From positions 9,610,001 to 9,674,000 of the forward strand of contig OZ024746.1 in the NCBI GenBank assembly GCA_964016885.1: DNA of 64,000 bases. The letters run 5' to 3'. This DNA comes from Eledone cirrhosa. Lineage: Eukaryota. Shown here piece after piece: positions 1,764-59,542 of this stretch. The notes below the pieces were generated by a model. That model saw nothing but the letters and a program-made list of their open reading frames with translations. It was not told the DNA's origin and ran no database searches. The position numbers and the translations under genes were made by a program. The stretch's first letter is position 1, and each line of letters starts with the position of its first letter.

Positions 1764-2214
1764 GCAGACGTTATATTTAATTTGTTAGGATTCAACAAGC
1801 TTAAACATTTTTATAACTGATATAAAGCACTCAACAGTTTAGTGGATTAAATACACAATATATTAATAAATGGAAACTATATTTATAAAACCATATTTAT
1901 TTTATTATATATATTTCAAGGGCAACCAAGACAAATTATGGTGCGCTTTCATCAGATAAAATACAGATTTGTTTTATAAATAAATATTGACATACCCGGA
2001 AAAAAGACAACCTTAACGGTTGGAGCTTCCCAGATAGCTATCCAGGAAGCTCCAACCGTTAAGGTTGTCTTTTTTCTGGGTATGTCAATATTTATTTATA
2101 AAACAAATCTGTATTTTATCTGATGAAAGCGCACCATAATTTGTCTTGGTTGCCCTTGAAATATATATAATAAAATAAATATGGTTTTATAAATATAGTT
2201 TCCATATTGTGTAT
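1764..2214. mobile_element. Fold-back (palindromic) Penelope-like element remnant, family A, with a hammerhead on both arms
   Basis: Near-perfect palindrome 1870-2205 centred on GATAGCTATC (2033-2042). The left arm has an unpaired ~100 bp extension (1764-1869). Flanked by TA/CA microsatellites. The same family occurs at 31763 and 34178. Confidence 0.75.
2112..2177 (+). ncRNA. Minimal type I hammerhead ribozyme (mirror copy on minus strand at 1898-1963)
   Basis: TATTTTAT-CTGATGA-AAGCGCACCA..TGGTTGCCCTT-GAAA-TATATA-TA-ATAAAATA. Helix I is 8 bp, helix II is imperfect, helix III is palindromic, and the cleavage triplet is AUA. Confidence 0.75.
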
Positions 2215-3149
2215 ATACACACACATACACATTTATACATACACACATACACGCACACACACATACACATTTATATATATGTCTGCATATACTTATATAT
2301 ATATATGTGTGTGTATATGTAGGTGGAAAATTGGTAGAGTATTACTCTATTAAATGTTCCTGCCTAGCGGTTGAGACCATGCTGGAGCTCTACAATTGTA
2401 TGTAAGTATGTGTTTAGCACAACCATACTACTTACAAAATAGATAAAAGAAAAACGACCAATGTTGACTGTAAATGATCCCTTAGCAAATTGATAAAATG
2501 TAGAATGATGAAATAAATACCAAATAGAATTTATAGAGCTAGAGCCGCTATAATTTACTAAAATCTCTGAAGTTGGTGGTGTATCATGACCTTAGTCTAA
2601 TAGATGGAATGTGTTAACAAAAATAAAACAGACATGTGAAAAAATATATTCACATTTTACCTTTTTCCAGATGTAATATTTGGCATATAGAGGTTTTAAT
2701 GGAAGTCCCTTCCATCTCCTTAGATTTGCCTTACATACACAGATAAATAAATACACATACATACACATATACATTCTTATGTACATATTCACATATACAT
2801 GCACAGCCACATTGTACAATCACAAAAGTTCCCAACTGTATCTTAACCATCTTGAAGGTATCATATATTATTTAATTTTATAAAGAATGAACAGCTTGAT
2901 ATTTGACGAGCAGCAATTTGAAAGAAAAACTGCTTGGAGAAAGAATTCCACCACCAGTGTATGACAGAATGTTGGAATGGAATTGAAAATCAGGCTATCA
3001 ACTAAGCATTTTACAATAAAAGAAATGTCATTCAGATTTAATATGAAATACCAAAGTATTCTGCGAGTATGCTATATTTGCAATACACCTAGAGATGTTT
3101 TTGTTTTAACTCCTGAAAGACTAACTCTCTCTCTCTCCCTCTCACTCTC

Positions 3150-3196
<47 letters not shown>

Positions 3197-4213
3197 TTTT
3201 CTCTCTCCTGTACACATATAGAAATAGCTGCCAAATGACTGCAACAAAATCTCCCTCACATCACAACCTATTGTCGTAAAAAGGGGGAGAAAACATTGGA
3301 TAATGTAATTCTGCATGCAATATGTCTTGATATAAAATGCAATGGTCAGGACTAAGGTGGAGCTATATAAACAACACATGCACACACACACACACACACA
3401 CTCTCTCTCTCTCATACACACATACACATACACATTCAGTTGTTCAAGCAGCTGAACCACCAACTTAATAAATTAACATAATTTCTCAGTCCACTTTAGC
3501 ATGACAATATTTGACAAGATTGGACAATTGAATTATAGATACAATCCATCCAACAGGCTTCCACACAGTTTCTATCTGCCCAATGTCACTCACAAGGCTT
3601 GAATCAACTTGAGGTAGTGATAAATGATATTTACTCAAGATACCACACAGTGGTACATGGAACATGGGACTTTTTGATTATCAAGTATTTACTCAGTTAT
3701 GCTTGCATTCACAAACTTGTTTGAATAGAAATGCAACAAAATATATTTTAACTTGTATTATTCAACATAAATGTAAAATATCAATCAAAGAATACATTTT
3801 CTTGAAGAGCAGATAATCAAAATATAAGGAAAATTACATTTGGAATATATTTTTGATCAGCATCAAATTCTAATTGGCAATGTGAAAATAATGTGTTTGT
3901 ATAACCTCAGGTCAACTCTAAGTGAGGAGGCATATGATCAAAGATATTTAAAGCTATGGTCATTCCCTCGTTTACTTAAGTATGTTGTATTTAGGACTGC
4001 ATTTTAAAGATGGTAATGTATAGTTTGAGAAATATTTTCTTTTGTTGCTATTTTTAGCACCTAGAGGTTCCATCATGTAGAAGTTCTACCCTGATGTATG
4101 GTATTCTTAGGTCTAAATGTATTTTCATTTAACCCCAAGTCAGCTCAGATTACGGAAACCTAGCCATTCTAGCCATGACCATTCCATCATGGTATGCATT
4201 GGACTATATTATT

Positions 4214-4405
4214 GAGGGCGGTGGATTGGCAGTATCGGTAGAGGGTCGGACGCCATGCTTTGAAGCAGAGTTACCTCCCTTTATGATCTGAGTTCAAATC
4301 CCGCCAAGGTTAACTTTGCCTTTCATCCTTACAGGGTCGATAAAATAAAGTACCAGTAATGCACTGGGATAATTGCTGGCCTTGTGCCAAAAGTAGAAAC
4401 AATTA
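4214..4405 (+). mobile_element. tRNA-derived SINE (family S1)
   Basis: A-box-like TGGCAGTATCGG, B-box GAGTTCAAATCC, body AACTTTGCCTTTCATCCTTAC.GGGTCGATAAAATAAAGTACCAG, and tail GTGCCAAAAGTAGAAACAATTA. Many similar copies lie in this window. Confidence 0.9.
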
Positions 4406-5262
4406 GTGAATGTGTCCTTCATATTTTTTAATATGGTAGGGTGTAATTTCTGGTATGTATAGGTTCTCACCTGATTTGCCAAACTTTGTGTGATTTATAT
4501 CAATAATGTGCAGCTTTTTTTCTGCCATAACCCACATATTTTTATATCATGTGGTACATCCAACATTCATTAAATAAAACCAAAAATCGATATTCAAACA
4601 CAAATTTAATTCAAATTGTAATAAAGTACAAAAGAAAAATATGAGATATAGGTTCAATGGATTTCTTGTTCCTGGTGTCATAATTAATTTTCCTAAATAT
4701 ACAAATGTCACCATGGCCAATCTTTATACAGTGATTGTTGTTGTAGCTATTCTGCTCTAAAATTGGTTCTGGTTGATCAAAGAGACTTCCAGCATTCATT
4801 GTCTTTGAATTGGCAGAGCCATTAGAGTATCATCATAATCAAAATCATCATCATAATCATCATCATAATCACCACCCTTTAACATCCATTTTCCCTGCTT
4901 ACATCTTGCGGTATTTGTTCTGGCTCCATGAACTTGGAGGTCAACTCTACTTTTCATATGATACAGTACCAGTTCAGGCGATGGATTGTTAGAATTGTTA
5001 AAGTATTGTGAGTTCAAATGTTTATGAGGCCTACATGGGTAGATGACTTAATTCACACTCTGGCTTAAGACTACTACCTTTAGGAAAATCCACTCTGTGA
5101 CAAGAATTCCAGTCAGGTCTCCTGTTTAAAAATACTTTCTTCCCATTCATTCACCAGTGTCATAGGCTCTACCCTTCCCTCCACCACAAAAAAATGATTT
5201 TAAAAAAAAACATGTAGTGCACCTGAGCACTGTACACAATACTTTTCATTATTATTATCATT

Positions 5263-5660
5263 GAAGGGTGGTGGATTGGCAGTATCGGTAGAGCGTCGGA
5301 CGCCATGCTTTCTAGCATAGTTACATCCCTTTACATCCCTTTACAGACTGAGTTCAAATCCCACCGAGGTTAACTTTGCCTTTCATCCTTACGGGGTCGA
5401 TAAAATAAAGTACCAGTAATGTACTGGGTAATTGCTGGCCTTGTGCCAAATGTAGAAACAATTATTATTATCATTGAATTGGCAGAATCGGTAGAGGGTT
5501 GGACACCATGTTTTGCAGCATAGAGTTACGGCCCTTTGCGTTCTGAGTTCAAACCCCACCGAGGTTAACTTTGCCTTTCTTCCTTACGGGGTAGATAAAA
5601 TAAAGTACCAGTAATGCACTGGAATAATTGCTGGCCGTGTGCCAAAAGTAGAAACAATTA
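5263..5660 (+). mobile_element. Two tandem S1 SINEs
   Basis: Copies at ~5263-5462 and ~5477-5660. The first is flanked by the 18-bp direct repeat ATTATTATTATCATTGAA (5248-5265 and 5461-5478). Confidence 0.9.
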
Positions 5661-5741
5661 ACATTTTATATAGAACCCTAATATGGGACAACATTTTCAA
5701 AATTTAATGTGCTTCCTTTATTTTTAAGATTAAAATGACAT

Positions 5742-9635: not shown

Positions 9636-9694
<59 letters not shown>

Positions 9695-11553: not shown

Positions 11554-11709
11554 TAGTGAATCAAATTCCAATACAGCCAGTGTCATATTTTACTTTTTAT
11601 TTTCGCTTGTGCCTTCATCTCTTCAGGTGAATGTCCGAAGACATGAAAGCGCAAGTGAAAATAATGATTAAAATGTGAAACTTCAGCTGCGTTAGAATTT
11701 GATTGACTA
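11554..11709. mobile_element. Old, diverged fold-back element with a degenerate hammerhead-like core
   Basis: Imperfect inverted arms TAGTGAATCAAATTC.. / ..GAATTTGATTGACTA next to (TA)n. The minus strand reads TTCAC-CTGAAGA-GAT-GAAG-GCAC-AA-GCGAA and the plus strand reads CCGAAGA-CAT-GAAA-GCGC-AA-GTGAA. Confidence 0.5.
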
Positions 11710-14700
11710 TTATATCATATATATATATACATATATATATATATACATATATATGTACATATCTATCTATCTATATATATAATTCATAGTCTGTTTACAG
11801 ATAATGTAACAGTCATATATATATATAGTACAGTCTCATACAAAATATAGTGAGTAGAAAAACTTCAATCAACTAAGATCGCCCTTCCAATTTCAAAACA
11901 AATTCTCCCTTTAGAAGTGTTCAAATCTAAAAACAAGCAAGAAAGAGAATTTCTAGAATATTGATTAAGCCAAATTTTGGTGAAAACTTTTTGACAATGT
12001 ATTAGGGAATGGATTTTGTCTTAATACCAACAGGTGAAAGTAGAAGACATATTACGATTTTGTTTTCTCAGTTAAATGCATTTAGTTAGCATAGTTGACT
12101 TATATATAGGAATATGTATGCATACAAGTTGACAAAAGGGTTTTTACATTGTCTCTCGATGTGTAAGAAATCAAGTTAAAAAATCTCCTTCAAATCATAT
12201 CATATCATTTTACAACAAAGAAGGACATATTGGATAATGAAGTCAAGGTTTCCCCTAAAAGTTCTAGATGGCTCCAGTTGGAATGTTTTTAGCACTTTCG
12301 TTACCATATTTCTATAGTCTATAATGGTTAACATACTTTTACAGTAAGATAAATGTATAACTATATCACAGCAGAGGACCAGTTCAATTCTTATGGAGGG
12401 AGCCAAAGCATTTTCCTAAAATACTATATTTTTAATGTATACGTGTGAATGACCTTTCTTCTTTATACTTGTTATTGTGTGTACATGTATGTTTATTTAT
12501 ACATGTATGTTTGTGTATACATGTATGTGTATAATGAGTGTATGATGAGGGTGGTAAAATTATAATGAATATCACTAATTTGATAAAGGTGAAGGAAAAA
12601 TTACTCCTGCTGCTACTAGTACAGTTAAGCTTTTATTCATATATATACTTGCATCCAATTAAGCTTTCAATCCAATACGAAATTTGTTGGAGAAAATAAC
12701 TTCTTTGATTATTGCTTATTTCTATATCCATGAAACTAATCAATTTTATCTACACTTGACATATTCAAAATAATGGTAGAACTTGTGTGAAGACTAATAA
12801 ATAAGCAATAATTGAGTTATATTGCAAAATATTAATGAAATTAATAATCTTGCTACCTGGTGTATATATTGATCATTTATCAATATAAATTGAATTTTAT
12901 GGAAATGTTATTTATATTTTTCTTAGATAATAAACAAAAATATTTTCATATAAATGATATAGTTAGAGTATTGTGATAAAAGATATTTGGTTATATGCTT
13001 ACATATTAATTAACATTGAAACTGTATATGTTCTAAAATATTGCTTTTATATATATTAACCATCAATTGACCTATCTTCCTAATGATTTGAATAACTTCA
13101 GGTTTTTCAATATCCTGCTTTCTAGCCATTAATTAACTGTAACTAATGTAAACAACTGTAAATAATAATAAAATGTCTTACTTTGCCTGCTTTGGTTTTG
13201 ATCATTTCAGTAATGTAAAGAATACAACAACGATTTCTATCATAAATTGTTGTAAAATTCCCTACTGAATATATATTCAGTAGTTAGTTACATAAATATA
13301 TGGCAGAATAAATCAAAACAATGTATCCCCTTTCAAATAGTTATTTTATTTTACAATAGTCAAATATATTTCTAGGATAAAATTACATAAAATTAATAAA
13401 GAATTTAATATTTAATCAAATATATAGAGAAAGAAAGTAGCATTGAAAAGGAATATAATTGCTCTAAATGAGAAGAAAAGGAGATAAAGGGCAAAGATTA
13501 TCTGTATATTTTAATGTATAAATTGTTTACATCACATAGGGATAACAATAATGAACAATAAATACTAAATACAAGAAATATCCTAGCAGGAATATCATTA
13601 AGTGAAATCTAATATATCTTATTCTATAGATTGTTTCTCTATAAAAAAAGTTAACTTCAAAACATTTTGTTTAGTAAAATGAAGGAATAAGTACAAAAAT
13701 CACCATATTATGGAAAGGTTACATTCCGATAAACTTTGCTGTAAAGTGGAATTCCATAACACAGAACCTATTTTTCTTTTGACTTCTAAGTTATATATTG
13801 GAATGCATTCATATGGAATTTTTTCAGAGAAAACTAAACAAACAATGAAACCACTTTTATGCATGAAAATAACTAATTCTAAACACACAGAGTACAGTAT
13901 ATGTAGCGGCATTTGAAGAGAAATATATTAAGGAATAAATAAGAATAAACATTTAGCTTTTGCTTGAATTATAATCTCATTTAGCAGTACATTACACCCA
14001 GTCAATCCACACACAGAGGGGTCATTCCACATTAAGCATCACATCAGTTCAAAACACATCAAATAATGTCTATGTAGTTAATGGAGTAGTTGCCGGTCTT
14101 TATTGTCACATTGTTTCCAAATAAACATTGCAAGCTTTAATGTTTTTTGAAATATGGCTGAGTTTTTCAAGATCAAACCTTTGTAAAACACCGATTTTAA
14201 TGTCCCCCATAATCCCTTTATGGGCTACTGCCTTCACTTCCACTTGATGGATTATGTCCAGACATCTTCAACATGAGTAATGCACTGTACTCTGTATACT
14301 GTTGGCTTGTAAAAGTAAAATCCTACAGCTGTGGTAGCAGACAGAAAATCCACACAACAGTCACAGATAGTAACTTTCTAGTAATTATTGTTTTATATAT
14401 AGATATTGCGATTTTAGTTTTCAAAATTCTTAAAATTCACCTGAATTTCCATAAAGGTAGAATTATAAGATGTGTCCTCAAATTAATTATCATACTTTCC
14501 AATTTCCATTTGTGAGTAATTCTATAATCAGAGTTTCCATAATATTGAGAATCCCTGTAATGTATAACTTTGTCACATGTACATAATTTGGGAAATGGGT
14601 GTAGTAAATTTATTTTACTAGCACTTTTTTGTGAAACAAATATATTTGATATACTTGACTGGCTCTTTTTATTTTAAACAAAATACCAATTATTCATTCA

Positions 14701-17661: not shown

Positions 17662-17709
<48 letters not shown>

Positions 17710-17782
17710 CTTGGCACATGAATACAGAAATCTTCTAAATAACAAAAAGGTCAGTCATTGCATTTTGCAAACCCTATTTTCC

Positions 17783-17829
<47 letters not shown>

Positions 17830-17830
<1 letters not shown>

Positions 17831-18138
17831 TTCGTATTTCTAAAGGAACACGGTTTTAAGCTGTAGCTATGCAAACACTGGGGCTATCGCCCTCTGGTGG
17901 TGTCCAGCAGAAGCAAGGGGGACAACCGTCTATGCATTTCTGGATTGACTGGCCTTCCTCAGGACGGTACCTAAAATTTACAGATACGAGAAAACTATAT
18001 ATTCTCAACTGTTTTCAAATCCAGCAGTTGCAAGCAGTGGGAGGGACCGGTGTTTGCATAGCTACAGCTTCCTAAAACCGTGTTTCTTTAGAAATACGAA
18101 ATTTCTATACATATTTGTATAAAGCTATGCTTGAAGCG

Positions 18139-18143
<5 letters not shown>
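17830..18143. mobile_element. Fold-back element in (TA)n with an internal hammerhead
   Basis: Inverted arms 17830-17878 and 18050-18101, an unpaired ~40 bp tail 18102-18143, and (TA)n on both sides. Confidence 0.7.
17925..17968 (-). ncRNA. Minimal type I hammerhead ribozyme
   Basis: Minus strand ACCGTC-CTGAGGA-AGGCCAGTCAATCCA-GAAA-TGCA-TA-GACGGT. Helix I is 6 bp, the core is intact, helix III TGCA is palindromic, and helix II is weak. Confidence 0.7.
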
Positions 18144-18170
<27 letters not shown>

Positions 18171-18173
<3 letters not shown>

Positions 18174-19380
18174 TTAAGGATACTATTTATGGTTATGTAT
18201 ATACTAAAACTTTTTATAGTTATATATATTTTAAACCCTAAACAGTGAAAGACAGTAATTTATTACTACCTTATTACCAGTAAGATAAATAGCTCAATGT
18301 AATAACATCAGTTGTTCTACAGAGCAGTTATATAGAAATCACATGAATCAAAGTTCTGTTTAAACCATTTATTAGCTTACAATTGTTTCGTCCAAACCGA
18401 GGTTTGGAGTCTTCGGAGCAATTTTTCAATGATTGTTTACATACATGACCTCCTTTCCAACACAAGAGACGTACAGAAACATATGTATATATCGATACAC
18501 AGTGGGGTGACATCCATTATAATATTTTTGCATGGCAATTTAAATTCAAAAATTAAAATCATATTAAAACAAAATTAAAGTTAAAATACAACATCGGCAG
18601 TTTACGAAGATAATGCAAGAGGATAGTTTGTTAGTCAGTTGAAGTAGTTAGTGCATGCAATAGTTACATGTGGGGCATGCACGTGTGTCTTATTTATATA
18701 AGATTATTGTGCGGCAAGGTTTTATATGCAATACAAGCACTTTAAGTGGGTAATCAAGAGTATTATGGGGGTTGTAGTGGTAAAGTATTTTTTATGTATG
18801 ATAAAGAAGCTTGTGTGCAGAGAAATATTATAAATGAGAAGCAAGATAATATTATGGTTTTTGTATGCTTCTCATTTATAATATTTCTCTGCACACAAGC
18901 TTCTTTATCATACATAAAAAATACTTTACCACTACAACCCCCATAATACTCTTGATTACCCGCTTAAAGTGGTTGTATTGCATATAACACCTTGCCGCAC
19001 AATAATCTTATATAAATAAGATACACGTGCATGCCCCACGTGTAACTATTGCATGCACTAACTACTTCAACTGACTAACAAACTATCCTCTTGCATTATC
19101 TTCGTAAACTGCCGATGTTGTATTTTAACTTTAATTTTGTTTTAATATGATTTTAATTTTTGAATTTAAATTGCCATGCAAAAATATTATAATGGATGTC
19201 ACCCCACTGTGCATCGATATATACATATGTTTCTGGATGTCTCTTGTGTTGGAAAGGAGTTCATGTATGTAAACAATCATTGAAAAACTGCTCCGAAGAC
19301 TCCAAACCTCGGTTTGGACGAAACAATTGTAAGTTAATAAATGGTTTGAACAGAACTTTGATTCATGTGATTTCTATATA
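18171..19380. mobile_element. 1.05-kb palindromic element in (TA)n with a hammerhead-like motif on both arms
   Basis: Arms 18329-18843 and 18866-19380 with a 22-bp spacer and a few substitutions between arms. Unpaired ~158 bp tail at 18171-18328. The mirrored ORF-track peptides (18328-18513 and 19196-19462) confirm the symmetry. Confidence 0.85.
19290..19334 (+). ncRNA. Minimal hammerhead variant (mirror copy on minus strand at 18375-18419)
   Basis: GCT-CCGAAGA-CTCCAAAC CTCG GTTTGGAC-GAAA-CAATTG-TA-AG(T/C). Helix II is 7 bp, helix III is palindromic, and the triplet is GUA. The core has U4C in both arms and helix I is short. Confidence 0.6.
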
Positions 19381-25177: not shown

Positions 25178-25334
25178 TAGTTACACAGGTACTTAAGTTT
25201 CGTTGGGTTATACACCTGAACTCATTTAGCCTGTTATATAACTTAAGTACCTGTATATGTCACTGTTGTAACTCATTATACTTAACTTGCCATATGGATT
25301 GAGTGCTCTTACATTTGCATATTTCTACCAAACT
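25178..25334. mobile_element. Small fold-back element in (TA)n with a degenerate hammerhead (minus strand, 25185-25234)
   Basis: Inverted repeat ACAGGTACTTAAGTT/AACTTAAGTACCTGT. The minus strand reads ACAGG-CTAAATGA-GTT..AAC-GAAA-CTTAAG-TA-CCTGT. Confidence 0.65.
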
Positions 25335-25355
25335 TATACTGCAGTATATATATAT

Positions 25356-27974: not shown

Positions 27975-27981
<7 letters not shown>

Positions 27982-28301
27982 TGTAATAAACAACATAAGG
28001 CAATTATTTCATTTACCAGTGGTTTCTTGAAAGCAAACAAATTTTGCTTTCAATCATCAGAATGAAAAAAATCCTGGTGTATTTATTGACATTGGATTTT
28101 AAAAAAAGGTTTTTTTAAATCCAATGTCAATAAATACACCAGGATTTTTTCATTCTGATGATTGAAAGCAAAATTTGTTTGCTTTCAAGAAACCACTGGT
28201 AAATGAAATAATTGCCTTATGATGTTTATTACATAACTATTAAGCTCTGTAACCTACATAGAGCACTCTTTTTTCCTGGACCTTTCCGACGGAATTACTT
28301 C

Positions 28302-28305
<4 letters not shown>
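27975..28305. mobile_element. Palindromic element in (TA)n with an intact hammerhead on both arms
   Basis: Palindrome 27975-28240 centred at 28108-28109, unpaired ~65 bp tail 28241-28305, and long (TA)n on both sides. Confidence 0.85.
28148..28208 (+). ncRNA. Type I hammerhead ribozyme with an intact core (mirror copy on minus strand at 28007-28067)
   Basis: TTTCATT-CTGATGA-TTGAAAGCAAA ATTTG TTTGCTTTCAA-GAAA-CCACTGG-TA-AATGAAA. Helix I is 7 bp, helix II is 11 bp, helix III is short, and the triplet is GUA. Confidence 0.88.
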
Positions 28306-28367: not shown

Positions 28368-28556
28368 ATAGTTCAGGCACAATTCCCATAAAAATGTTCA
28401 TAACAGATTCATCAGACATCAGTACATACATTATTATTTTTCCAAATCTTTGCCTAATGAGAAAAACAACCAGCCACATTATTTACAGATGTTCAAAATT
28501 TCTCTTATTGGCAACATTATTTCCAAGTCCTGCTGCTGCTGATAACAACAATAATC

Positions 28557-28942
28557 ATTGTTTCTACTTTAGGCACAAGGCCAGCAAATACCCAGTATAT
28601 TACTGCTACTTTATTTTATCAACCCCATAAGGATGAAAGGCAAAGTTAACCTCGGTGGCGGGATTTGAACTCAGAATGGAAAGGGCCGTAACTCTATGCG
28701 TCAAAGCATGGTGTCCGACCTTCTACCGATACTGCCAATGGTTTCTGATTTAGGCACAAATCCATCAATTTTGGTGAGAGGGCAAAGTTGATTAAATTTA
28801 CCTTAGTGCATTACTGGTACTTTATTTTACTGATCTCATAAAGATGAAAGGCAAAGTTAGCTTTGGTGTGATTTGAACTCAGAATGTAAAGGGACGTAAC
28901 TTGATGCCTCAAAGCATATTAGCCGAAGTTCTACCGATTCTT
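28557..28942 (-). mobile_element. Two tandem S1 SINEs
   Basis: Reverse complement of the S1 consensus twice (~28557-28739 and ~28737-28942). Confidence 0.85.
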
Positions 28943-30674: not shown

Positions 30675-31716
30675 TCATCATCATCATCATCATCAACGTT
30701 TAACGTCCGTGTTCCACGCTTGCATGGGTTTGGACGGGGGTAGTCCCACTTGAGGCAAGAGTGATTTTCTTGCTCGCATAGGACTGTCTGGCAGGTTTTC
30801 TACAGTTGGATGCCCTTCCTAACACCAACCACATTTACAGTGTGGGTCTGCGAGGTTTTTACCGTGTTGCCTACACGGCCACATTACAGCGTGGACTGTG
30901 TGTTTTTTTATCGTGACACCTACACGATCTCATTTGTTTCGGCCTGGATGGCGCGGTACCAACATAACTTTACATAGAACGGGGTGGTGTGGATGGGGTG
31001 GGGGTGGTGGTGGTGGGACGGGGTGTATTTTGTTAGAGATGCCTACTGGCAAGGCGGGTCTTCTCTATTACTGAGTACCGCCAAAGGTCTCGGTCCAGTG
31101 ACATTGTCTTGGTGAGGTGTAAGTGTGTGAGGTCGGAGTTTATCAGCTCGTCCCAGGTTTTTCTGGGTCTGCCTATTCCGTGGCTACCGTCTATCTTTAT
31201 TGCCCTGCACTTTGTTATACAGCTATCATCCTTCATGCGCATCATGTGACCATACCAACGTAGCCTTCTCTCTAGTAAACAACATCTGATCCCTCTTATT
31301 TCTAATTTTTTCCTTAGTTCGTTTATGCTTTGTCGTTCACGTATATTACTATTACACATCCAGCGGAGCATGCAAGCTTCGTTTCTCTCTAGTCTGCGTA
31401 TATCCTCTGCACACAATGCCCATGTCTCACTGCCATGCAACATTGCTGTTCGTATGCCGGCATCGTACAGCCTGCCTTTCATTTTTAGGGAGAACCCTTT
31501 AGCGGCTAATAGTGGTATAAGCTCTCTGAACTTTTTCCACCCAGTTCTGACTCTAGCTACTGTACTTTCAGAGCACCCTCCCCCACTGCTGATTTTGTCA
31601 CCCAGGTAACGGAAGCTGTCCACTATTTCTATAGAACCCTCTGCGCAGTTGAAGAGCTAGTATTTTGTGGGCACTTGCTGCTACTTATATCCCCAGAACA
31701 CCGGCCACATGTAAAA

Positions 31717-31762: not shown

Positions 31763-31943
31763 TACGATATTAAATAAATGGAAACTATATTTATAAAACC
31801 ATATTTATTTCATAAATATGGTTTTATAAATATAGTTTCCATTTATTTAATATCGTAAATATACTCCAAATACTTGTTGAGTGCTTTTATATCAGTTATA
31901 AATATTTACTAGTTGTAACCCAACAATTTAAATATAACTTTCC
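31763..31943. mobile_element. Family A fold-back element (46-bp arms)
   Basis: Arms 31763-31808 and 31812-31857 with spacer TTC and an 86-bp tail, in (TA)n. Homologous to 1764-1910. Confidence 0.8.
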
Positions 31944-32793
31944 ATATATACATATATATATATATATGTATATTATAAAAATGTTGTACCCTACAGTTAA
32001 GCTTTTACCATTCCAATAACAGGTGAACTGATTCTAATTTGATTCAGCTTGTTTCAAAAGTATCTCTTCAGGGGCATGGTTATAGTGTGACATATACATA
32101 TATATGTACACACACACATAGTAGATTGAAAACAATTCATATTTAATTCATCTTTTGTTTTCAGTTTATCTTATGCTTGTGGCTATTGTTGGTTGTTGTG
32201 ACTGCAGTTCAATGACATTAAATGTAATTGTAATTAAATTTCCTATTGCTTTTACTGCAGTCTTTTCCTTGTTGCTCACACTGTCTCATTTTTAATGAGT
32301 TACTTTCAATAATTCCTATCACTGTCTCTGCATTACATGCACACATGTTCACACCTTCTCAAGGTGTACCAGAAGTGGAAGGTGGGGGTTGATGTGGTGT
32401 GTGTATGCAGGGAGAGGATTGGAGAGATAAGTCTGTGGGATATTTAGTGATGGGGACAAGTGTTAAGACATGGAAGCTGTTTCAAAGTGCCTTTTGGCAG
32501 GATAGATATATTATATATATGTGTGCATGTGTGTATGTAAATACACCTTGCTAAAAGAGAAAGTGTCTGTTAAACGATGATTTTTTGAAAAACATTGTCT
32601 GTGACTTTGAAGTGATAATGATTGCAGAAATGTAATCTATAATAAATATATTGATACTGACCTCAAAATTCATATATTCGTTTTATATCTAGGTTATTTG
32701 GTAATTTTGTTGATTACTGGAGGCGACACTGAAATGAGCCTTCGATGCTATAGCAGAGAGTACATATTTTGTATGAGGTAACAGTTTCACATG

Positions 32794-33033
32794 AAAATAT
32801 TTTTATTGCATATTGAACATTACATGTTTCACAAATGGTTGGCTGAAGCACCTTATCAATATGATAGACCTGACTCCAATATCAATCTGCTTACCAAACG
32901 GTTGAACTCAAATCAAACCATTGGGGGAATCTGATAACATAATTCTGAAGTCAGGTCTATCACTTCGATACAGACCTCAAGCCAATCATCTGTGAAACAA
33001 ATGTAACATTCAATATGCAATAAAAACATTTTT
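32794..33033. mobile_element. Old diverged fold-back element
   Basis: Imperfect inverted arms ~32794-32878 and ~32946-33033 (TTTTTATTGCATATTGAA/TTCAATATGCAATAAAAA and TGATAGACCTGACT/AGTCAGGTCTATCA). Each arm has a GAAA-CA(A)ATG-TA-like hammerhead 3' half. Confidence 0.55.
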
Positions 33034-33241
33034 AAATGAATCTTTGTTATCACATACATAATATATGTATATTAACAAATAAGTCTTGCAAACTGTTTCA
33101 CTTTGAAAAATTATTGGGTGTCTGGAACTCAAATAATATAAAGTTATCTCCTGAGCCATAATCTTAGACATGCTGCAAGCTATATTCTTAACATACATCA
33201 ATTTAGTAATGTTTGCTGAAGGTTTCATGTACTCTTTCATT

Positions 33242-34177: not shown

Positions 34178-34320
34178 TATGATATTAAATAAATGGAAAC
34201 TATATTTATAGTTTCCATTTATTTAATATCATAAATATACTCCAAATACTTGTTGAGTGCTTTTATATCAGTTATAAATATTTACTCGTTGTTAACCCAA
34301 CAATTTAAATATAACTTTCC
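34178..34320. mobile_element. Family A fold-back element (27-bp arms)
   Basis: Arms 34178-34204 and 34207-34233 with spacer TT and an 87-bp tail nearly identical to 31858-31943, in (TA)n. Confidence 0.8.
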
Positions 34321-39519: not shown

Positions 39520-39890
39520 AGAAAACAAACGAGGAAGAATATATTGAGACAGATGGCACTAAGGAATACTGGTGAAACCTGAAAATAAAAACGGCCACCA
39601 AATTAAAGCACAACCGGCCTGATATTGTTGTTTGGGACCACACATTGAAAACGTGTTCTGTTGTGGAGATCAGCTGCCCACTTGATGTAAACGTTGTCAG
39701 AAAAATACAGGAGAAGGAGGACATCTACGGACCATTGATGAGGAGTTTACAAATCCAGTATCCAAGATACACCTTTTGCTTCATACCCATCATTATTGGA
39801 GCTACGGGTTATATACCAACTCGTTTGGACCAAAGTATGACTGAACTTGGATTTGCGGACAAAGAGCGCAGCTCCCTAATTCATAGTCTA
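39520..39890 (+). pseudogene. Restriction-like endonuclease domain fragment of an R4/Dong-like non-LTR retrotransposon
   Basis: EYW*NLKIKTATKLKHNRPDIVVWDHTLKTCSVVEISCPLDVNVVRKIQEKEDIYGPL..FIPIIIGATG shows the RPD...E..(K..K..Y) signature. One in-frame stop. Embedded in (TACA)n. Confidence 0.8.
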
Positions 39891-40081
39891 TATACATATA
39901 TACATACATACATGTATACATACATACATGCCTTTTTGTACATAATATGTTAACAAGCCAATGAGTATACATGGATAAGATATTCCCTCAATCTACTGTT
40001 AATGCTATGTACTAACATAGCCGCCAAATGGCCTTCAAGTTATGCCCTACTGTCTTGACAAAAGAAATGACATATTAGATA

Positions 40082-40270
40082 AGAGTGGTGGTTTGGCAGT
40101 ATCGGTAGAGCATCAGACACCATGCTTTGCAGCATAGAGTTGTGACCCTTTGTGTTCTGAGTTCAAATCTGCCAAGGTTAACTTTGCCTTTCATCCTTAC
40201 GGGGTCGATAAAATAAAGTACCAGTGATGCACTGGGGTAATCGCTGGCCTTGTGCCAAAAGTAGAAACTA
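40082..40270 (+). mobile_element. S1 SINE with target-site duplication
   Basis: S1 consensus flanked by ATATTAGATAA (40072-40082 and 40270-40280), inserted in an older repeat. Confidence 0.88.
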
Positions 40271-42761
40271 TATTAGATAATGTAGTTCAAATTCTGGCTG
40301 AAAATGAAAAGACACGAGGGTCACCATTTTAATGCATTTGATCACAGGTTTGCTCGACTAGGACTGATCTGAGGCTAAACAACAACAAAATATGTTATTG
40401 ACATACATTTATTTATGTTGAATAAAAACATAAACTTATTACATATATTTGCAAGGACTAAAATTACAAAGTCATACATGCACATTCTGGAAAATTTCTA
40501 ATGAAAAAAGAAAAAGAAAAATGATAAAAAATATCTTGCCACAACAAAATGCACCCAGTCCACACTGTAAAGTGGTCATGTTGGTGTCACGATATAAAGT
40601 CATGTAGGTGTCATGACAAGTATCACCCAACACACTCTGTAAATGTGGTTGGCATTAGGAAGGGCATACAACCATAGAAACCAAGCCAGAAACAGTTCTG
40701 TATGAGCAAGACACAGTCACTTGAACCAACTTGTCTCAAATAGAACAACCTGTCTAACCCATGCTAGTGTGAAAAATGGATGATCTCTACTCTATTATAT
40801 CAACTGATAAAGGAGAAATTTTAGAATGTTTTTAAACCAATTATTTTAGGTTCAAATAACAATAACAGCACAAAACAATAGACTATCAGACTGGCAGCAT
40901 AATAATTAAGAAGTATAAAATACAGTTTGTTAGGCCCAAAATGGTGGACAGAAAACCAATTAGTATTTTAATAAACAAAATAGGCCTACTTCGAACTTTG
41001 TCAACTACAAAATAATTTTAATTAGAATCGAAAAGAAAAATATGTAAAAATCTAGAATCAGCCAATTTACTCCTTGGTGATAAATTTAACCTTGGTTGGT
41101 AAACCCTGTCTTCCCGATTTCTTCCTTCAACTTAAAATAAAATTTGGAATAATAAAAAACAATGATTCATTTTTTTTAAATTATTCTTGCCTTCTTTAAA
41201 ATCTATATATGTACATACACAAATACTCTACTACTTCTCACTCACTATTTCTCACTCTCTCTCTCTCTCTCTCTCCATCACTTTCACTTCTTCAATCTAT
41301 TAATCTTTCTTCTTCAAGTAAATATATGAGTGGGCGAAATTAAGTTATTATACTACAACACATCTTGGCTGACCTATCATGGCTGACCTTCTATACCTAA
41401 AACATCTAGCTATCTATTTGACCCACCACCAATCCAATCAACATCTTCTGGTAGTGGTGATGATAGTTACTTTCTGATGCTCTTTCTATCTTTTCTTCTT
41501 CACAAACATCTATTCTCCTGAATATTTATCTAAAAAAAAAAAAGGAAAAAGAACACCAAGCCTTTACATCCGTTAACAATTTTTATGGAGAGTTTTCAGC
41601 TTTGTTTTACTTTATAGAAAAACAATTTATAGCAAAATCTATTAATACCAGTAAATTGTATTGCGTATGTTATAGTAATTTTATATATAGTAATTTTCAC
41701 AAACTTTTCAAGAACATTTTCAGTTTTATTAAATTTCTAAAACGTGATATTTAAAAACATATCTATTTATATTTCATAAAAAATGCAATGAATTTATGCT
41801 TGAGGATATTGAACTAATGACCACAAAGAGCAAAAGGTTTTGCAATACAGAAACTATGATGTTAATTTCCAGCTGTATGTTGACAGATGCCCCACATATA
41901 CCATTAGTTAAAGCATTTGTGTGGCATTTTCCCATGATTATGTCTTTGGAAGCCAATAAGAGCTGAGGTCATTGCTCTACAGAACAATACTACTTGTTGG
42001 TGTTTACATTTTTATTCACCCTTAAGCCCAAGCTGCACTAAGAAGATTCATTTGGGATTCTCAGTCAGTTGAAGTAGCATCAAAATCCATTAATTAAACT
42101 GATCACAGTCCTTCACTTAATTCTTTATTTATTTAATTGACGGTGGAAGGATTAAAGACAAAATTTCCCTGAATTACATTGAAAATAAAGGACAAACTAA
42201 ATCCTGCAAGGCCTTTTGCCTGATACTTGCAGTTATGTACCTAGTTTAATCTTAGACCTAGTTATGTATGCTGTGTGTACCCCAGTATTTAGATACTGCA
42301 TGTATCCTGGTTTTTAGAATAGGCACATCATATCTCAGTATGTTATAAATGGTAACTGAAAAAGCTGACATGAGGAAGAGCATTTAACTGTAAAACACTA
42401 CCTTAAAATGTCCCATCCAACTTATACCAACATAGAAAGGGTGATGTAAAAACAGCACTAGGCCTAACTTTATATATATGTGAGTGTGTAGTAAACTATC
42501 GGTGGGTGTAAAAATGAAAACAAAGCTCAATCAGGTATGAGAGTTGATATATTATTTATGTTCATACATAATGTTAAGCAATGAGGGAATAAGAAAATCA
42601 AAGTAAGAAAATTAATCCATTGTTTTAAGAACATTTCAGAGAGAAATAGCTAACAATGTGCAGACTAATCGATGTTAGACAATTCCATACTATCAGCCTC
42701 AAAGATGCATATCTATTCTGCTTTCATTCCTTGTCTGTGTATATGTGTGTGCATTAGTTGT

Positions 42762-43004
42762 GTGAAGGTGCATGGCTTAGTGGTTAGAGCATTGGGCTTG
42801 CAATCGAAAGGTTGCGAGTTCAATTCTCGGACCGGGTGATGTGTTGTTTCCTTGAGCAAGACACTTTATTTCTCATTGCTCCAGTTTACTCAGCTGTAGA
42901 AATGAGATGATAGGACTGGGGTCCCTATCATTAAATCACCCAAGACACCTCCAACGAGATATAACTTGGAGGAGGCCAGCTAAACCTGCATAGGTGTGAG
43001 CTGT
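42762..43004 (+). mobile_element. tRNA-derived SINE (family S2, CORE/V-like body)
   Basis: TGGCTTAGTGGTTAGAGC A-box, GAGTTCAATTC B-box, and TCCTTGAGCAAGACACTT body motif. Confidence 0.85.
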
Positions 43005-43139
43005 CACACACATTAGTTGTTAATGTTTCCTCATTTCCCATTCCTTGTCAAAAAACTTGCTTATGTGCTACAAGGTTCCTGTGGCTTCTCACAAGGTGTT
43101 GGCTATACTAGAAGACACCTGCTAACAGTTGTTGTTGTT

Positions 43140-43372
43140 ACAGCTCACACCTATGCAGGTTTAGCTGGCCTCCTCCAAGGTATATCTCGTTGGAGGTGTC
43201 TTGGGTGATTTAATAGGGACCCCAGTCCTCTCATCTCATTTCTACAGCTGAGTAAACTGGATCAACGTGAAATAAAGTGTCTTGCTCAAGGAAACAACCC
43301 GGTCCGAGAATTGAACTCACAACCTTTCGATTGCAAACCCAATGCTCTAACCACTAAGACATGTGCCTTCAC
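43140..43372 (-). mobile_element. S2 SINE, inverted partner of 42762-43004
   Basis: Close reverse complement ending at the same 3' point, with a ~135 bp spacer. Confidence 0.85.
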
Positions 43373-44755: not shown

Positions 44756-45400
44756 TATCCCTAAAATAGCAATTCTTGTCACTAGTTTCTTATAATATCA
44801 AATTGCTGATTTAAGTGGTTTTGAAATAGAGAAAGCTGGAAAATTGAATTATTCTCAAATATATTTAGTGTTTCCACATTGCAATACCAGAGATTTGAAG
44901 TTGATAAAATGTTGTGTATATTTTTTTCTATACATAAAAGGGGAAAAAGAAAATAAGATATATTTTAGCAGAAAGCAAAAATAGCAAACCAGTTTCTTTT
45001 TTCTGCCTACACATTTATTTTAACATTTTCTGTTTTAGAAGTAGACGATAATTATATCTTTTGTTTTAGCCCTTTTGTTACCAAACATACTAAAACTGCC
45101 CCTGGTTCTGTATTATGAAGCTGTATAATTTACAATGTTTATATTTATCTAAAAAAAAAAGCACCTTCCATCATATTATGTAAGAATCTTTAAGTTATAC
45201 TCCAAAAACCAGCTTCATAAAGAAAATGTTAGTTATTCAAATCTATCCAGATTCCTAATTATTTTCTAAATTATTTGAAAGTCATAGGCAGTGGAAATAA
45301 AAGGGATAATGAGGAACTTTTACTTTTCATTTGATCTTTGGTAAATTTCAATTTTATTTTCTAAATTGTTTAATAAATTGTTAAAATAATCTTCCATAAT

Positions 45401-45582
45401 AATTGTTTCTACTTTTGGCACAAGGCCAGAAATTATCTCAGTGTATTACTGGTACTTTATTTTATTGACCCCGTAAGGATGAAAGGCTAGTTAACCTCAG
45501 CAGGATTTGAACTCAGACCATAAAGTGCCGTAACTCTATGCTGCAAAGCATGGCGTCCGACTCTCTACCAATACTGCCAATC
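45401..45582 (-). mobile_element. S1 SINE
   Basis: Reverse complement of the S1 consensus. Confidence 0.85.
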
Positions 45583-49610: not shown

Positions 49611-49644
<34 letters not shown>

Positions 49645-49645
<1 letters not shown>

Positions 49646-49891
49646 AACATTCACTTCTCAAACATCTGGTTCTAGATTGGAAATGTTATATCTACTCTAG
49701 CCTTGGGTTGACCAATACCTTGTGATTAGAAGTTAGTAGGTGAAAACTGTGCAGCAGAAATCTGTGCTGTATATATCATCATCATCATCATCACCGTTTT
49801 ACATCCGTTCTTCCACGCTAGCATGGGTTAGACGGGTTGTCCTGTTGTGGGCAGTGTCTGGTCGGCTGACCATGCCTTGCTCATACAGGAA

Positions 49892-49935
<44 letters not shown>

Positions 49936-50057
49936 CACAGATTTCTGCTGCACAGTTTTCACCTACTAACTTCTAATCACAAGGTATTGGTCAACCCAAG
50001 GCTAGAGTAGATATAACATTTCCAATCTAGAACCAGATGTTTGAGAAGTGAATGTTT
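49645..50057. repeat. Perfect 126-bp inverted duplication
   Basis: 49645-49770 and 49932-50057 are exact reverse complements by eye. The spacer is a (CAT)n-tailed retroelement fragment plus (TA)n. Confidence 0.9.
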
Positions 50058-56439: not shown

Positions 56440-57560
56440 ACATCATGCCACTCCCATCCCAGTTTAACACCCTCAAACACTGCATTCCTGAGTTAACTCC
56501 GATACTTATCAAGCCCTTCAATACCTCAATATCTCACTCTTGTTAACAACTGCCTATACAACTTTGTTAAAGCTAGATATCCCATTGGCCTACATTCCTG
56601 TCACTTAATAGTAAACTCTCATATGCTAGAAATTTGCTTTGTTGCCCTCAACATCAGCAAAGGATTCAACCATATCTGGCATGTGAATCTCTTAGCTAAA
56701 TTTTTATTCAATGGACATCTTTCATCTTTTTGATCAGTGACTTTCTTTCAGATTGCACTATCAGATTATATTGATAGAGCTCTGTCTGATCCACACTGTA
56801 TCAACTCTGGCATGTCTTGTGACTTAGTTTTATTACTCATACTTTTCCCCCTTTACATCAATGATCTACTTGCTGTCACCTCCAATAACAGCCACCTCTA
56901 TACAGACAACAGTCCCCCATCATTACTTCCTATCTGTCAATATGCACATATTAACTATATACAACCTAAAAACTGCATACTAATTTTTCGCTATGAACAA
57001 AGACCTCCAAAACATTCTTCCCTATGACCGTTTCACATACTAGTCCTTGTATCACTGAAGATCCTTCCTGTGAAGACCTCCAAAACATTCTTCCCTATGA
57101 CCGTTTCAAATACTAGTCCTTGTATCACTGAAGATCCTTCCTGTGAAGTACACATCCTTAATATAGAAAGGACTGTATCTCAACAGTTAGTATTCCTTTT
57201 CAGAGCCAGAAATTTCTAACACTCTGCAAAACTCAACTGAAATGTTGCTGCTACTCTACAGATGGACAACCTAGAGTGCATCCAGAGGGAAAACCACTGA
57301 GCTGATTGGTCTGAAGGCACTCACAAATATATTCTATTGGACATCCCCTTTCTACCTCTTTACAGCTATGGCAAGAACCTCTCCTCCTTAGATCTGGCTG
57401 ATCTTGTGCCACCTCCACTCAGGCACTCTGAACTCACTCATCTTTCCTCTGTCATCACTTATATTGTGTCTACTTCAGCCCTAGGTCCTACACTAACCAC
57501 TTCATTCTTTCCTTTCTTCCCAGGATGGGTTTCAAAGTAAGGGACTTACTGCAAAATCCA
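56440..57560 (+). mobile_element. Degraded LINE reverse transcriptase region (CR1/Jockey-group-like)
   Basis: VALNISKGFNHIWH (cf. DISKAFDRVWH), INSGMSCDLVL..LF.LYINDLL (cf. GVPQGSVL.P.LF..FINDL) and HLYTDNS (cf. YADD). Contains a 73-bp tandem duplication at 57000-57148. Confidence 0.75.
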
Positions 57561-58584
57561 AAAGAGACTCTATTGATTCCATATAAGTTCAGTTGGTACA
57601 TCAGGTTAGATTTGCCAAATAATATAATGAGTTAATCAGAAGATAGTATTACTTTTTACATTTAAGATTGTAAGAAAATCTTTCTAGGATAAGTGGATCT
57701 AACTCTAATGAGAAGATAGGGCTGTAATAAAACCTTCAAAATATAGAAGGAGAGATGCCAGATCTCCTTCCTCCTTAAAGGAAATATTACAAGCATTACT
57801 CAACTTGAATCATATTATGTGCCAGATTTACATCTAATGAAATTTTGAAATGCTTGTCTAAATTACACCTTATATGTTTCAATTATTATAACATCAAAGC
57901 TATAAACCATGGCTTGTGGGAGGAGCTATATTAAAATATGAAGCACAGAAGTAATCAAGCTCAATTCTAACTTTCAGATTAATATCATTTAATTAAATGT
58001 TAGAAAGGATCCACAAAAATACATTGAAAAAATAACACAAAGATATTCAGAAACCAGAATTATGATTGAGTTAGGATTAGTGTTCTTAAATAAGAAACAT
58101 AGTCATTGAAAAGCTATTTTTCATATTTAGATTATTATTAACATATTTAATGCAGGGAACATTGAAAATTTAACTAGAGATACTTAAGCATAATTAGAAG
58201 CTAAACTGAGCTCAGTTCATGACAATGGCATGAATTTTGAGAAATATGTTGGGAGGAATAAGGTACTAAATATCCTATGCAAAAACTGAATTGAAATTCT
58301 CCTCATAGTTGGAGAAAAAACACAAACCTTCAAGAAATCAAAAAATAATCTCTCAAATATAATTTTACATGTTTAGGGAAAGGATGACCTGATATTTACT
58401 TGTGGACAAGGAACTATTATGGACATGGATTTGTTAGGTTTCATTGGTGTAGTATAGTCTACTCAAGCATGTTGATCAGTTGATAAAGAACTTTACACAT
58501 GGGAAAAGAATTTTGAGCATTTTTTAATAACTAGGTATGTAGAGAAAAGAAATAAAGGTTTTTAGTGAATGATTAATAATATTA

Positions 58585-58997
58585 AGGGTGATGGATTGGC
58601 AATATCAGTAGTGTGTCGGACACCATGCTTTACAGCATAGTTACTGCCCTTTATTGTCTGAGTTCAAATGCCACCAAGGTTAACTTTGCCTTTCACCCTT
58701 ATGGGGGTTAAAGTATCAATAATGCACTGGGGTCGATTTAATCGACATTCCCCTCCTCTAAAACTGTTGGCCTTGTGCCTAAATCAGAAACCATTATTTT
58801 AATATTGAGAGTGGTGGATTGACACAATCGGTAGAGGGTCGGACGCCATGCTTTCCAGCATAGTTATGTCCCTTTACGATCTGAGTTCAAATCCCGCCGA
58901 GGTTGACTTTGCCTTTCATCCTTACGGGGTCGATAAAATAAAGTACCAGTAATGCACTGGGTAATTGCTGGCCTTGTGCCTAAAGTAGAAACAATTA
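58585..58997 (+). mobile_element. Two tandem S1 SINEs
   Basis: Copies at ~58585-58795 and ~58806-58997. The second is flanked by ATTATTTTAATATTGAGAG (58793-58811 and 58994-59012). Confidence 0.9.
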
Positions 58998-59357
58998 TTT
59001 TAATATTGAGAGAGAATTTGCTATAGAAATTGGGCTATTGTTGTCTTTCTATGAAGAGTTCTTCTGCATTATAAATCTTAAAAGCATCACATTGTTGATA
59101 CACACAACTTTCACTCTTTCTATTTTCAAAGTGAAAGAACATATAACTTTTTAAAAATTTATATAACATTATCTTAACAAGAATTTTTAATAAATACTTT
59201 TTTAAAATGTCGACAAACAATAAATTCTTAATTTTTGTTGTTTGAAAAATATCAATGATTATATATAAATTATAAATCTTAGATATTAATTTTAGATTTA
59301 AGTGTTTTAATTGCAACCACAAATCTATAACTTTCAATTTGTGTATATATATATGTA

Positions 59358-59542
59358 TAATATAGAAATAGCTTCTACAGGACTAGAACTGTTTCATTTG
59401 GGAGAAATCATCAGATTTTTTCTCCCAAATGAAACAGTTCTAGTCCTGTAGGAGCCATTTCTATATTAAATATTTATACTCTGCTATGAATTGAGTACCT
59501 TAATTACTGTGGTTACCCCCTGATTGCACCCAGGATAAACTT
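59358..59542. mobile_element. Fold-back element in (TA)n, truncated within its hammerhead
   Basis: Arms 59358-59407 and 59419-59468 with a ~74 bp tail. The minus strand reads CTGATGA-TTTCTCCCAAAT-GAAAC-AGTTCTA-GTC-CTGTAG, with the 5' strand of helix I missing. Confidence 0.7.

Follow-up and report, generated by a model that had tools for sequence, protein, structure and literature searches.

Inverted-arm insertions in (TA)n tracts of Eledone cirrhosa as probable truncated ends of hammerhead-bearing Penelope-like elements

The window analysed here is a stretch of 64,000 nucleotides of the genome of Eledone cirrhosa (assembly GCA_964016885.1, contig OZ024746.1, positions 9,610,001 to 9,674,000 of the forward strand), which has a G+C content of 33% and is rich in microsatellites; the assembly comprises 3.0 Gb in 1,796 contigs. 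An initial annotation of the window described ten insertions with inverted arms and read them as short, ribozyme-bearing Penelope-like elements (PLEs). All ten are present, and all are inverted-arm elements. We consider it very probable that they are the 5'-truncated ends, joined head to head, of eight families of elements, three of which are joined to open reading frames (ORFs) with the motifs of the Hydra clade of PLEs (Craig et al. 2021, PMC8557442), and that they were likely inserted into (TA)n by target-primed reverse transcription. The features of the system are listed below (pLTR, pseudo-long terminal repeat; UTR, untranslated region).

1764..2205, minus strand: insertion of family 1, tailed arm running from 2037 to 1764 and inverted arm from 2038 to 2205, head to head; putative pLTR end of a Hydra-clade element
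1898..1963, minus strand: type I hammerhead of family 1, core CUGAUGA at 1955, helix III insert TATATA
2112..2177, plus strand: type I hammerhead of family 1, mirror copy in the inverted arm, core at 2120
11554..11718, strand unassigned: old fold-back of family 2, hammerhead decayed in both arms
17830..18142, plus strand: family 3, an ORF-less 323-nt unit; tailed arm 17976-18142 with the ribozyme deleted, inverted arm from 17972 to 17830 with the ribozyme
17925..17968, minus strand: hammerhead of family 3, core CUGAGGA at 17962, helix III insert TGCA
18171..19380, minus strand: insertion of family 4a, 158-nt tail at 18171-18328, arms at 18329-18843 and 18866-19380; 3' UTR and pLTR of a putative Hydra-clade element
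18375..18419, minus strand: variant hammerhead of family 4, core CCGAAGA (U4C) at 18416, helix III insert CAATTG; plus-strand mirror copy near 19293
25178..25345, plus strand: insertion of family 5, tailed arm beginning inside helix III at 25240; inverted arm from 25241 to 25178 longer on its 5' side and carrying the ribozyme
25185..25234, minus strand: variant hammerhead of family 5, 8-nt core box, helix III insert CTTAAG
27977..28303, plus strand: insertion of family 6, arms at 27977-28240, 63-nt tail at 28241-28303
28060 (minus strand) and 28155 (plus strand): hammerheads of family 6, helix III insert CCACTGG
31764..31943, plus strand: stump of a family 1 subfamily, fold centre at 31812-31813, both arms starting 3' of the ribozyme core
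32687..33067, minus strand: old fold-back of family 8, arms 72% alike, tail on the left; long-helix-II hammerhead decayed here
34181..34320, plus strand: stump of a family 1 subfamily without ribozyme
59348..59542, plus strand: insertion of family 10, fold centre at the ribozyme core, 64-nt tail

The insertions had been attributed to several families. Multiple families are indeed present, and the exact grouping gives eight, not ten, as the insertions at 1764, 31763 and 34178 belong to a single family or to close subfamilies (family 1). The arms are identical at 165 of 168 positions in the insertion at 1764 and at 503 of 515 in that at 18171. An unpaired tail of 40-160 bp on one arm had also been described; the tails exist, with measured sizes from 35 to 158 nt (about 84-90 nt in family 1, 35 in family 3, 158 in family 4, 65 in family 5, 63 in family 6 and 64 in family 10), and that of the insertion at 32794, about 75 nt long, starts at 32687, outside the position first annotated. 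The (TA)n flanks are clear at eight of the ten insertions and weak at 11554 and 32794. Families 3 and 4 lie back to back in the window, with only (TA)14 (18143-18170) between 17830-18142 and 18171-19380, and an additional short piece sits between two TA tracts at 17706-17785 (region 17664-17830); TA tracts thus serve as landing pads for successive insertions. A first-look search of the E. cirrhosa genome, in which at most 40 candidates were scored per search, gave totals that are candidate numbers and not copy numbers: 1,636 for family 1, 6 for family 2, 2,412 for family 3, 2,644 for family 4, 2,127 for family 5, 1,661 for family 6, 415 for family 8 and 2,855 for family 10.

We scored the 3' ends of families 1, 4, 5, 6 and 10 in 29, 24, 34, 29 and 19 copies, respectively, taken from the best matches to tail-bearing queries; family 3 was scored separately. 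The long 3' end fell at a single base in 26/29 copies of family 1, 22/24 of family 4, 26/29 of family 6, 16/19 of family 10 and 16/34 of family 5, and (TA)n or (CA)n came after it in 27/29, 21/24, 28/29, 16/19 and 28/34 copies, respectively, which bears out the proposed preference for TA tracts. An inverted copy adjoined in 14/29 copies of family 1, 6/24 of family 4, 8/29 of family 6, 13/19 of family 10 and 19/34 of family 5. Its end clusters at a second site, located upstream of the long end by 84 (family 1), 158 (family 4), 63 (family 6), 64 (family 10) and 65 nt (family 5), and lies exactly there in 7/14, 2/6, 5/8, 8/13 and 9/19 cases in the same order, with most of the others nearby. The ribozyme always reads away from the fold centre, that is, the arms are head to head. 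The position of the fold centre differs among copies, and many copies have no inverted arm. All six families that were scored have two recurrent 3' end points, most of them next to (TA)n or (CA)n, which is the "tail" signature of Penelope, and the layout agrees with that published for PLEs, namely a pLTR, an adjacent inverted 5'-truncated copy and an optional tail (PMC8557442, PMC3846280). The inverted-pLTR-plus-tail arrangement suggested earlier is thereby confirmed by end mapping in families 1, 3, 4, 5, 6 and 10. The ends are asymmetric and fixed within a family, and the symmetric, fixed terminal inverted repeats of DNA transposons or of miniature inverted-repeat transposable elements (MITEs) were not found.

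The ends also overlap the target. At nine end sites, the RNA sequence continues in phase with (TA)n for 6, 1, 3, 6, 1, 3, 4, 0 and 4 bases; the mean overlap of 3.1 nt compares with 1.1 nt expected (P=0.0016) for these sites, each seen in at least two copies (sites seen once were excluded), and the nine are few and not independent. We regard this as a lead toward target-template pairing through short UA runs at the insertion ends. In L247 (numbers with L denote genomic loci), a short unit at the first start site stands in about four successive copies ahead of (TA)n (4795-4950), which resembles repeated re-priming or slippage. In the 19 copies of family 10 (L138-L156), the common sequence extends no more than about 10 nt upstream beyond the ribozyme core; copies of this kind were favoured by the query. 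This could mean that family 10 is a mini-element of 150 nt or that reverse transcriptase (RT) stalls at helix I.

A strict type I hammerhead descriptor found four motifs in two elements of the window (1955 and 28060 on the minus strand, 2120 and 28155 on the plus strand), and relaxing the core and helix II raised this to seven motifs in five elements by adding those at 17962, 18416 and 25229, all on the minus strand. The statement that most of the insertions contain a hammerhead therefore holds only when these variant cores are counted, as strictly canonical motifs occur in only two of the ten. The motifs are far commoner than in shuffled sequence: 100 block dinucleotide shuffles of the window gave means of 0.01 strict and 0.08 relaxed motifs, with a maximum of 1. 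The five remaining elements have lost their hammerhead by decay (11554 and 32794) or by truncation, as the stumps at 31763 and 34178 end 3' of the ribozyme and the insertion at 59358 lacks the 5' strand of helix I while retaining the core CUGAUGA at 59414 on the minus strand. In the copy at 17962, helix II is damaged, whereas it is intact across family 3, and the core at 25229 carries a family-wide inserted base together with one extra mutation in this copy. The helix III inserts assigned to the individual families (TATATA, TGCA, CAATTG, CTTAAG and CCACTGG) were all correct, the palindrome CCACTGG having a single unpaired base at its centre. Three other types were recognized, one GTAC-/GGTC-like (family 2), one CATATG-like (family 8) and one 14-nt interrupted palindrome (family 10); the length limits set for helices II and III in the window descriptor had excluded the motifs of families 8 and 10.

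Other genomic copies of all eight families contain a hammerhead motif. It is present in 27 of 29 loci of family 1, 28 of 29 of family 6 and 15 of 24 of family 3, and it is intact in two genomic copies of family 8 (L165 and L176). Family 2 gave just five further genome matches, one of which (L159) has the full motif. A wider descriptor applied to 244 loci (888 kb) returned 260 motifs compared with 1, 0 and 0 in three shuffles; these loci were fetched with ribozyme-bearing queries, and the count is no estimate of density. The 133 matches (E<=1) of an Rfam scan of the window included no hammerhead family; almost all of them were miRNA models over microsatellites or hairpins and under their own cut-offs. 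Further hammerhead families appeared by chance in the flanks of L013-L232, with the helix III inserts CTAG, CCATGG, CTAATTAG, CCCATGGG, CATG and TGCGCA. A nuclease query gave 74,130 first-look candidates in the genome. The radiation of hammerhead elements in this genome is much larger than the eight families described here.

Inspection of the ORFs of the window showed none of Penelope type with RT or GIY-YIG domains, as annotated. We therefore looked beyond it. Walking upstream of family 1 copies led through a 1.3-kb AT-rich UTR into RT and nuclease frames, and this 3' UTR was present in 28 of 30 loci retrieved with the nuclease part. In L216, a 741-aa ORF of family 1 lies between two pLTRs (pLTR-tail, ORF, UTR, pLTR). 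Family 4a was found downstream of a related type of ORF in L209 and L210, and its sister family 4b, whose pLTR is 79% alike, is represented in L245 and L246 by intact ORFs of 818 aa, flanked by pLTR-plus-tail copies identical at 305 of 305 positions. The family 4b protein shares 41% identity with that of family 1. Partial tandems of pLTR, ORF and pLTR were found in L117, L216, L245, L246 and L247, and the tail continues into the ORF start in families 1 and 4b. The family 5 hammerhead lies 238 and 244 nt behind a nuclease C-terminus in L242 and L230, respectively (2 of 36 loci). A single ORF with RT plus a GIY-YIG nuclease at its C-terminus (VIY..YVG) is thus linked to families 1 and 4 and partly to family 5, and in these three families the hammerhead lies in sense orientation in the pLTR, where it had been expected. 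The three families account for five of the insertions, and their RT and GIY-YIG ORFs bear out the proposed Penelope-like identity. The window elements had been called non-autonomous or truncated; truncated they are, although not mainly non-autonomous, as at least three of the eight families are truncated autonomous elements and only family 3 was seen to be ORF-less.

The motifs found in the proteins are RWR, DKT, YRDD, CxCx5C, a single Cys between VIY and YVG, and CxxC..E..N..CxH; CCHH is absent. In the protein of L246, these include C677, one Cys between VIY696 and YVG711, C775xxC and C803xH; the CxCx5C linker and the Cys/His features of the nuclease also occur in the family 1 copies L065 and L217. 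A reading of the ORF as Neptune-type was dropped after comparison with the published definition of the Hydra clade. That clade is defined by such motifs, and its members are nearly all found in (TA)n and have hammerheads (PMC8557442). The motif content, compared with the published definition rather than by a tree, points to the Hydra clade. The ORFs show the change from DKG to DKT, and the elements have (TA)n targets; at the RWK position, both ORFs have RWR, and RWK or RWR is present in 8 of 10 database homologues. Look-alike proteins in the Atlas, at 0.95-0.98, have GIY-YIG (PF01541) in 26-50% of members and RVT_1 (PF00078) in 18-92%. Pfam searches with pieces of the ORFs and with whole ORFs gave nothing informative, and PDB sequence searches with the ORF proteins gave no match.

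Helices II and III show compensatory changes, the absence of which would have spoken against the initial interpretation. Among 58 distinct motifs of the family 1 clan, helix II pairs in 168 of 174 cells, compared with 124, 109 and 90 in slid controls, and helix III in 173 of 174; related copies are not independent in these counts, which were anchored on helix I and the core only, so that helix I stands outside them. The helix III inserts of the clan are TATATA, TATGTA, TGCGCA and TACGTA, with double changes among TATATA, TGCGCA and TACGTA, and CAATTG and CAGCTG occur in the family 4 clan. Such double changes suggest that a palindromic helix III is under selection. In fold predictions, helix III is unstable as a monomer in nine of ten motifs, and the dimeric hammerhead is the predicted minimum for five of ten. 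These predictions fit the dimer model that has been reported, together with low in vitro activity, for PLE hammerheads (PMC4209133).

Two of the cores depart from the consensus. In the family 4 clan, CCGAAGA (U4C) has 4,584 exact matches versus 53 for CTGAAGA, which could be products of CpG decay, and the U4C core is present in both pLTRs of the intact elements L245 and L246. All 16 exact matches of family 5 have the inserted core base. Both U4C and the insertion of a base after A6 are natural low-activity variants, the former still permitting viroid infectivity (Perreault et al. 2011, PMC3088659), and because of this the ribozymes of families 4 and 5 likely cut weakly. By this analogy, two families have likely spread with weakened ribozyme cores. 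The variants described by Perreault et al. are the same substitution as in family 4 and the same kind of insertion as in family 5 (A6a). However, they are viroid or isolated cases, whereas U4C is fixed here in thousands of copies, including intact young elements.

We suggest the following course of insertion. The GIY-YIG nuclease of the element would nick both strands of a (TA)n tract, and from each nick cDNA synthesis would be primed on the RNA of the element, starting downstream of the hammerhead at one or other of two fixed internal sites and perhaps aided by the pairing of 3-6 bases with the UA run at the start site. Both cDNAs would stop early and then be joined at their 5' ends, yielding an inverted arm without tail and an arm whose tail spans the distance from one start site to the other. 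The hammerheads may dimerise through the palindromic helix III, with cutting that is probably slow or protein-assisted and probably dispensable for insertion. For a Poseidon element, it has been reported that two RT start sites define the tail, that both strands are cut and extended in vitro, and that cleavage by the hammerhead is not required and is assisted by protein in vitro (Frangieh et al. 2024, PMC11167929). We found no pile-up of 5' ends at the predicted ribozyme cut among 25 incidental pieces of the family 1 clan in 178 loci, a sample of low power; no piece began within 5 nt of the cut except the element at 31763 of the window itself, counted four times. In that stump (31812-31819), no more than 2 nt separate the start of the inverted arm from the predicted cut site, which is an isolated instance.

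The inverted arm might instead be formed by fold-back, in which the cDNA or an antisense template self-primes at its truncated 5' end and is copied back to the pLTR boundary. Such self-priming has been suggested for palindromes of this kind (PMC3846280), and it is in keeping with the perfect, spacer-less palindromic centres at 1764 and 31763 and with the close agreement of the arms at 1764 and 18171. However, the two arms often begin at different points of the element, as in L063 and at 17830, and at 25178, at 59358 and in L065 (2.7 kb versus 1.6 kb) the arm without tail extends beyond the tailed one on the 5' side. Because a second arm copied back from one cDNA cannot exceed the first in length, and as the inverted arm ends at a family-recurrent site that matches the second RT start, we infer that two RNA-templated primings, one per nicked strand, are the better reading; fold-back as the general route appears rather unlikely, although perfect palindromes such as that at 1764 could arise in this way. 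Far less credible is a reading of the insertions as MITE-like DNA transposons or chance hairpins with ribozyme motifs as accidents of AT-rich sequence. The two oldest elements (11554 and 32794) are near-symmetric and without an intact motif in the window, as this reading would have it, yet the excess of motifs over shuffled sequence, the variable fold centres, the many copies without inverted arm and the RT-nuclease ORFs upstream contradict it, and we reject it for families 1, 3, 4, 5, 6 and 10. It is also hard to credit that the palindromes are fold-back artefacts of sequencing or assembly, which we rate lowest of all, as the arms differ by point changes, stop at family-recurrent sites and lie between different flanks, and as opposite-strand joints of family 3 are present in short-read contigs of two of three runs.

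Family 3 has to be weighed separately. A 323-nt unit read from L102 accounts for all of its pieces, and in 14 of 25 loci the tail is followed immediately, at one junction, by the start of the unit. In three runs of a single sample, perhaps the one from which the assembly was made, every run has this junction in 9-10 contigs. No sequence common to two loci was found in the 50 flanks compared. Within the sample seen, family 3 is an ORF-less closed unit, retrozyme-like in layout, and its insertions bear the two-ended, inverted, (TA)n-flanked signature of PLEs. In its size, within the 170-400 nt given for non-LTR (long terminal repeat) retrozymes (Cervera and De la Pena 2020, PMC7229834), its single type I hammerhead and its head-to-tail reading, it corresponds to those units, which have been argued from distribution and trees to be non-autonomous derivatives of PLEs (Li et al. 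2026, 10.64898/2026.07.22.740005). Alternatively, family 3 could be the truncated pLTR of an autonomous element in partial tandems, with no separate non-autonomous unit. Its layout, like that of families 1 and 4, would allow this, and only 25 loci were examined among the 2,412 first-look candidates. We nevertheless consider this improbable, given the single recurrent junction and the absence of flanks common to two loci; the tails of families 1 and 4b run into an ORF start, unlike that of family 3. Our preferred view is that family 3 may be a non-autonomous circular or tandem RNA of 323 nt mobilised by the same proteins.

Several observations weigh against the interpretation of the insertions as ends of Hydra-clade elements inserted by twin priming and carrying dimeric hammerheads. 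The end counts are biased toward tailed copies by the choice of queries, and the commonest short end of family 1 overlaps TA by 1 nt only. The ORF of L216 has substitutions at catalytic motifs, along with a deletion just past the CxCx5C linker. Pfam recognized no family in the ORFs of families 1 and 4b, and RVT_1 is present in only 1 of 13 aligned proteins. The link of family 5 to an ORF consists of two weak matches (2.6e-5 and 4.7e-5). For families 2, 6, 8 and 10, no linked ORF was found in 6, 35, 15 and 20 loci, respectively, most of which reach 1.5 kb on each side, and we infer their clade only from ribozyme, tail and target. Walking 8 kb upstream of family 6 in five loci likewise brought up no ORF belonging to it; the sequence common to the loci was about 0.6-1 kb long and rich in microsatellites. 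In the same region (L211-L215), the sequence is mostly (TA)n, (TG)n and mixed microsatellites, and the family carries simple repeats along. Finally, the predicted dimer minimum differs from the hammerhead fold in five of ten motifs.

We compared the elements with known systems. The Hydra clade (PMC8557442), which includes Hydra-1_Obim (2,507 bp), shares with them the order of RT then GIY-YIG, the motifs RW[KR], DKT and CxCx5C, the lack of CCHH, (TA)n targets and a sense hammerhead near the 3' end. Ribozymes listed for it in supplement S2 likewise have a mismatch at the base of helix II and a helix III with an unpaired centre base. The elements found here are longer, however, with periods from pLTR to pLTR of about 3.8 kb (L216) and 4.2 kb (L245 and L246) and 3' UTRs of more than 1 kb, against generally less than 3 kb, which is given as a general trait and is not diagnostic. 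Their tails reach 158 nt against 30-40 nt, and the motif is RWR here and RWK there. By eye, the printed ribozyme of Hydra-1_Obim matches none of the eight families, and neither a U4C core nor an extra base after A6 is found among the Hydra ribozymes printed in supplement S2. The Poseidon element PAc of Anolis (PMC11167929) shares two tail-bounding RT start sites, an AT-rich target and a hammerhead in the pLTR just upstream of the start sites. It differs in that its ORF begins inside the ribozyme, whereas those of families 1 and 4b begin after the tail, and in that its start site is without target homology, whereas the ends found here overlap short TA runs. Published dimer-type hammerheads have in common with those described here a palindromic helix III, many families per genome and opposite-strand pairs 100-700 bp apart, although helix III is longer here (4-14 nt insert) and the conserved G10.1-C11.1 pair is missing in several families. 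Non-LTR retrozymes (PMC7229834; 10.64898/2026.07.22.740005) resemble family 3 as described above, but family 3 was seen dispersed, with inverted arms, tails and (TA)n flanks, and not in long tandem arrays; its longest arms among the 25 loci comprise about 1.5 units, no genome-wide search for arrays having been made.

The clade, its layout, its ribozyme and its target are already published, and one octopus Hydra family is listed. Our literature searches, outside of which most subscription papers lay, found no account of these eight families, of a fixed U4C core in PLEs or of target-template pairing in Hydra elements. In the accessible text of a 2026 octopus repeat annotation, PLEs are listed, and the words Hydra and ribozyme are absent (PMC13282606). 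A wider picture, which we offer tentatively and think doubtful as a whole, would be that of a large recent radiation of the Hydra clade, in which an autonomous lineage reached thousands of copies with a near-dead U4C ribozyme while compensatory change kept its dimer helix. In such a picture, the hammerhead would serve as a scaffold for RNA dimers or protein binding, twin priming would take place on UA runs pairing with (TA)n in the style of telomerase, and a 323-nt circular retrozyme would ride along. L245 and L246 provide intact young elements of a putative Hydra-clade lineage, and the papers found give no biochemistry for this clade. With U4C fixed across a young family, the question of whether cutting is needed in PLE hammerheads can be put to a natural test, and short target-template pairing would be a testable account of (TA)n targeting. 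An ORF-less unit with the insertion signature of PLEs would lend structural support to the idea that retrozymes derive from PLEs, which so far has been argued from distribution and trees. Genome annotators can readily mistake such stumps for MITEs or for genes of hairpin RNAs.

The window contains other repeats. A 132-bp inverted pair, 99% alike (49645-49776 and 49926-50057), is accompanied by another repeat inserted between TA tracts; no hammerhead was seen, and the whole resembles a (TA)n insertion with duplicated or inverted flanks. Two copies resembling tRNA-derived short interspersed elements (SINEs) lie head to head or tail to tail at 42762-43372, with an inner inverted repeat 83% alike and a weak tRNA match at 42773-42830. 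ORF fragments at 31033-31656 (minus strand) and 39576-39953 (plus strand) belong to what we take to be non-LTR retrotransposons, presumably an RTE-like C-terminus and a restriction-like endonuclease end. A dispersed, partly tandem repeat of about 190 bp, with copies 75-91% alike, is present at 4207-4405, 5248-5660, 28553-28941, 40072-40283, 45398-45582 and 58569-59009.

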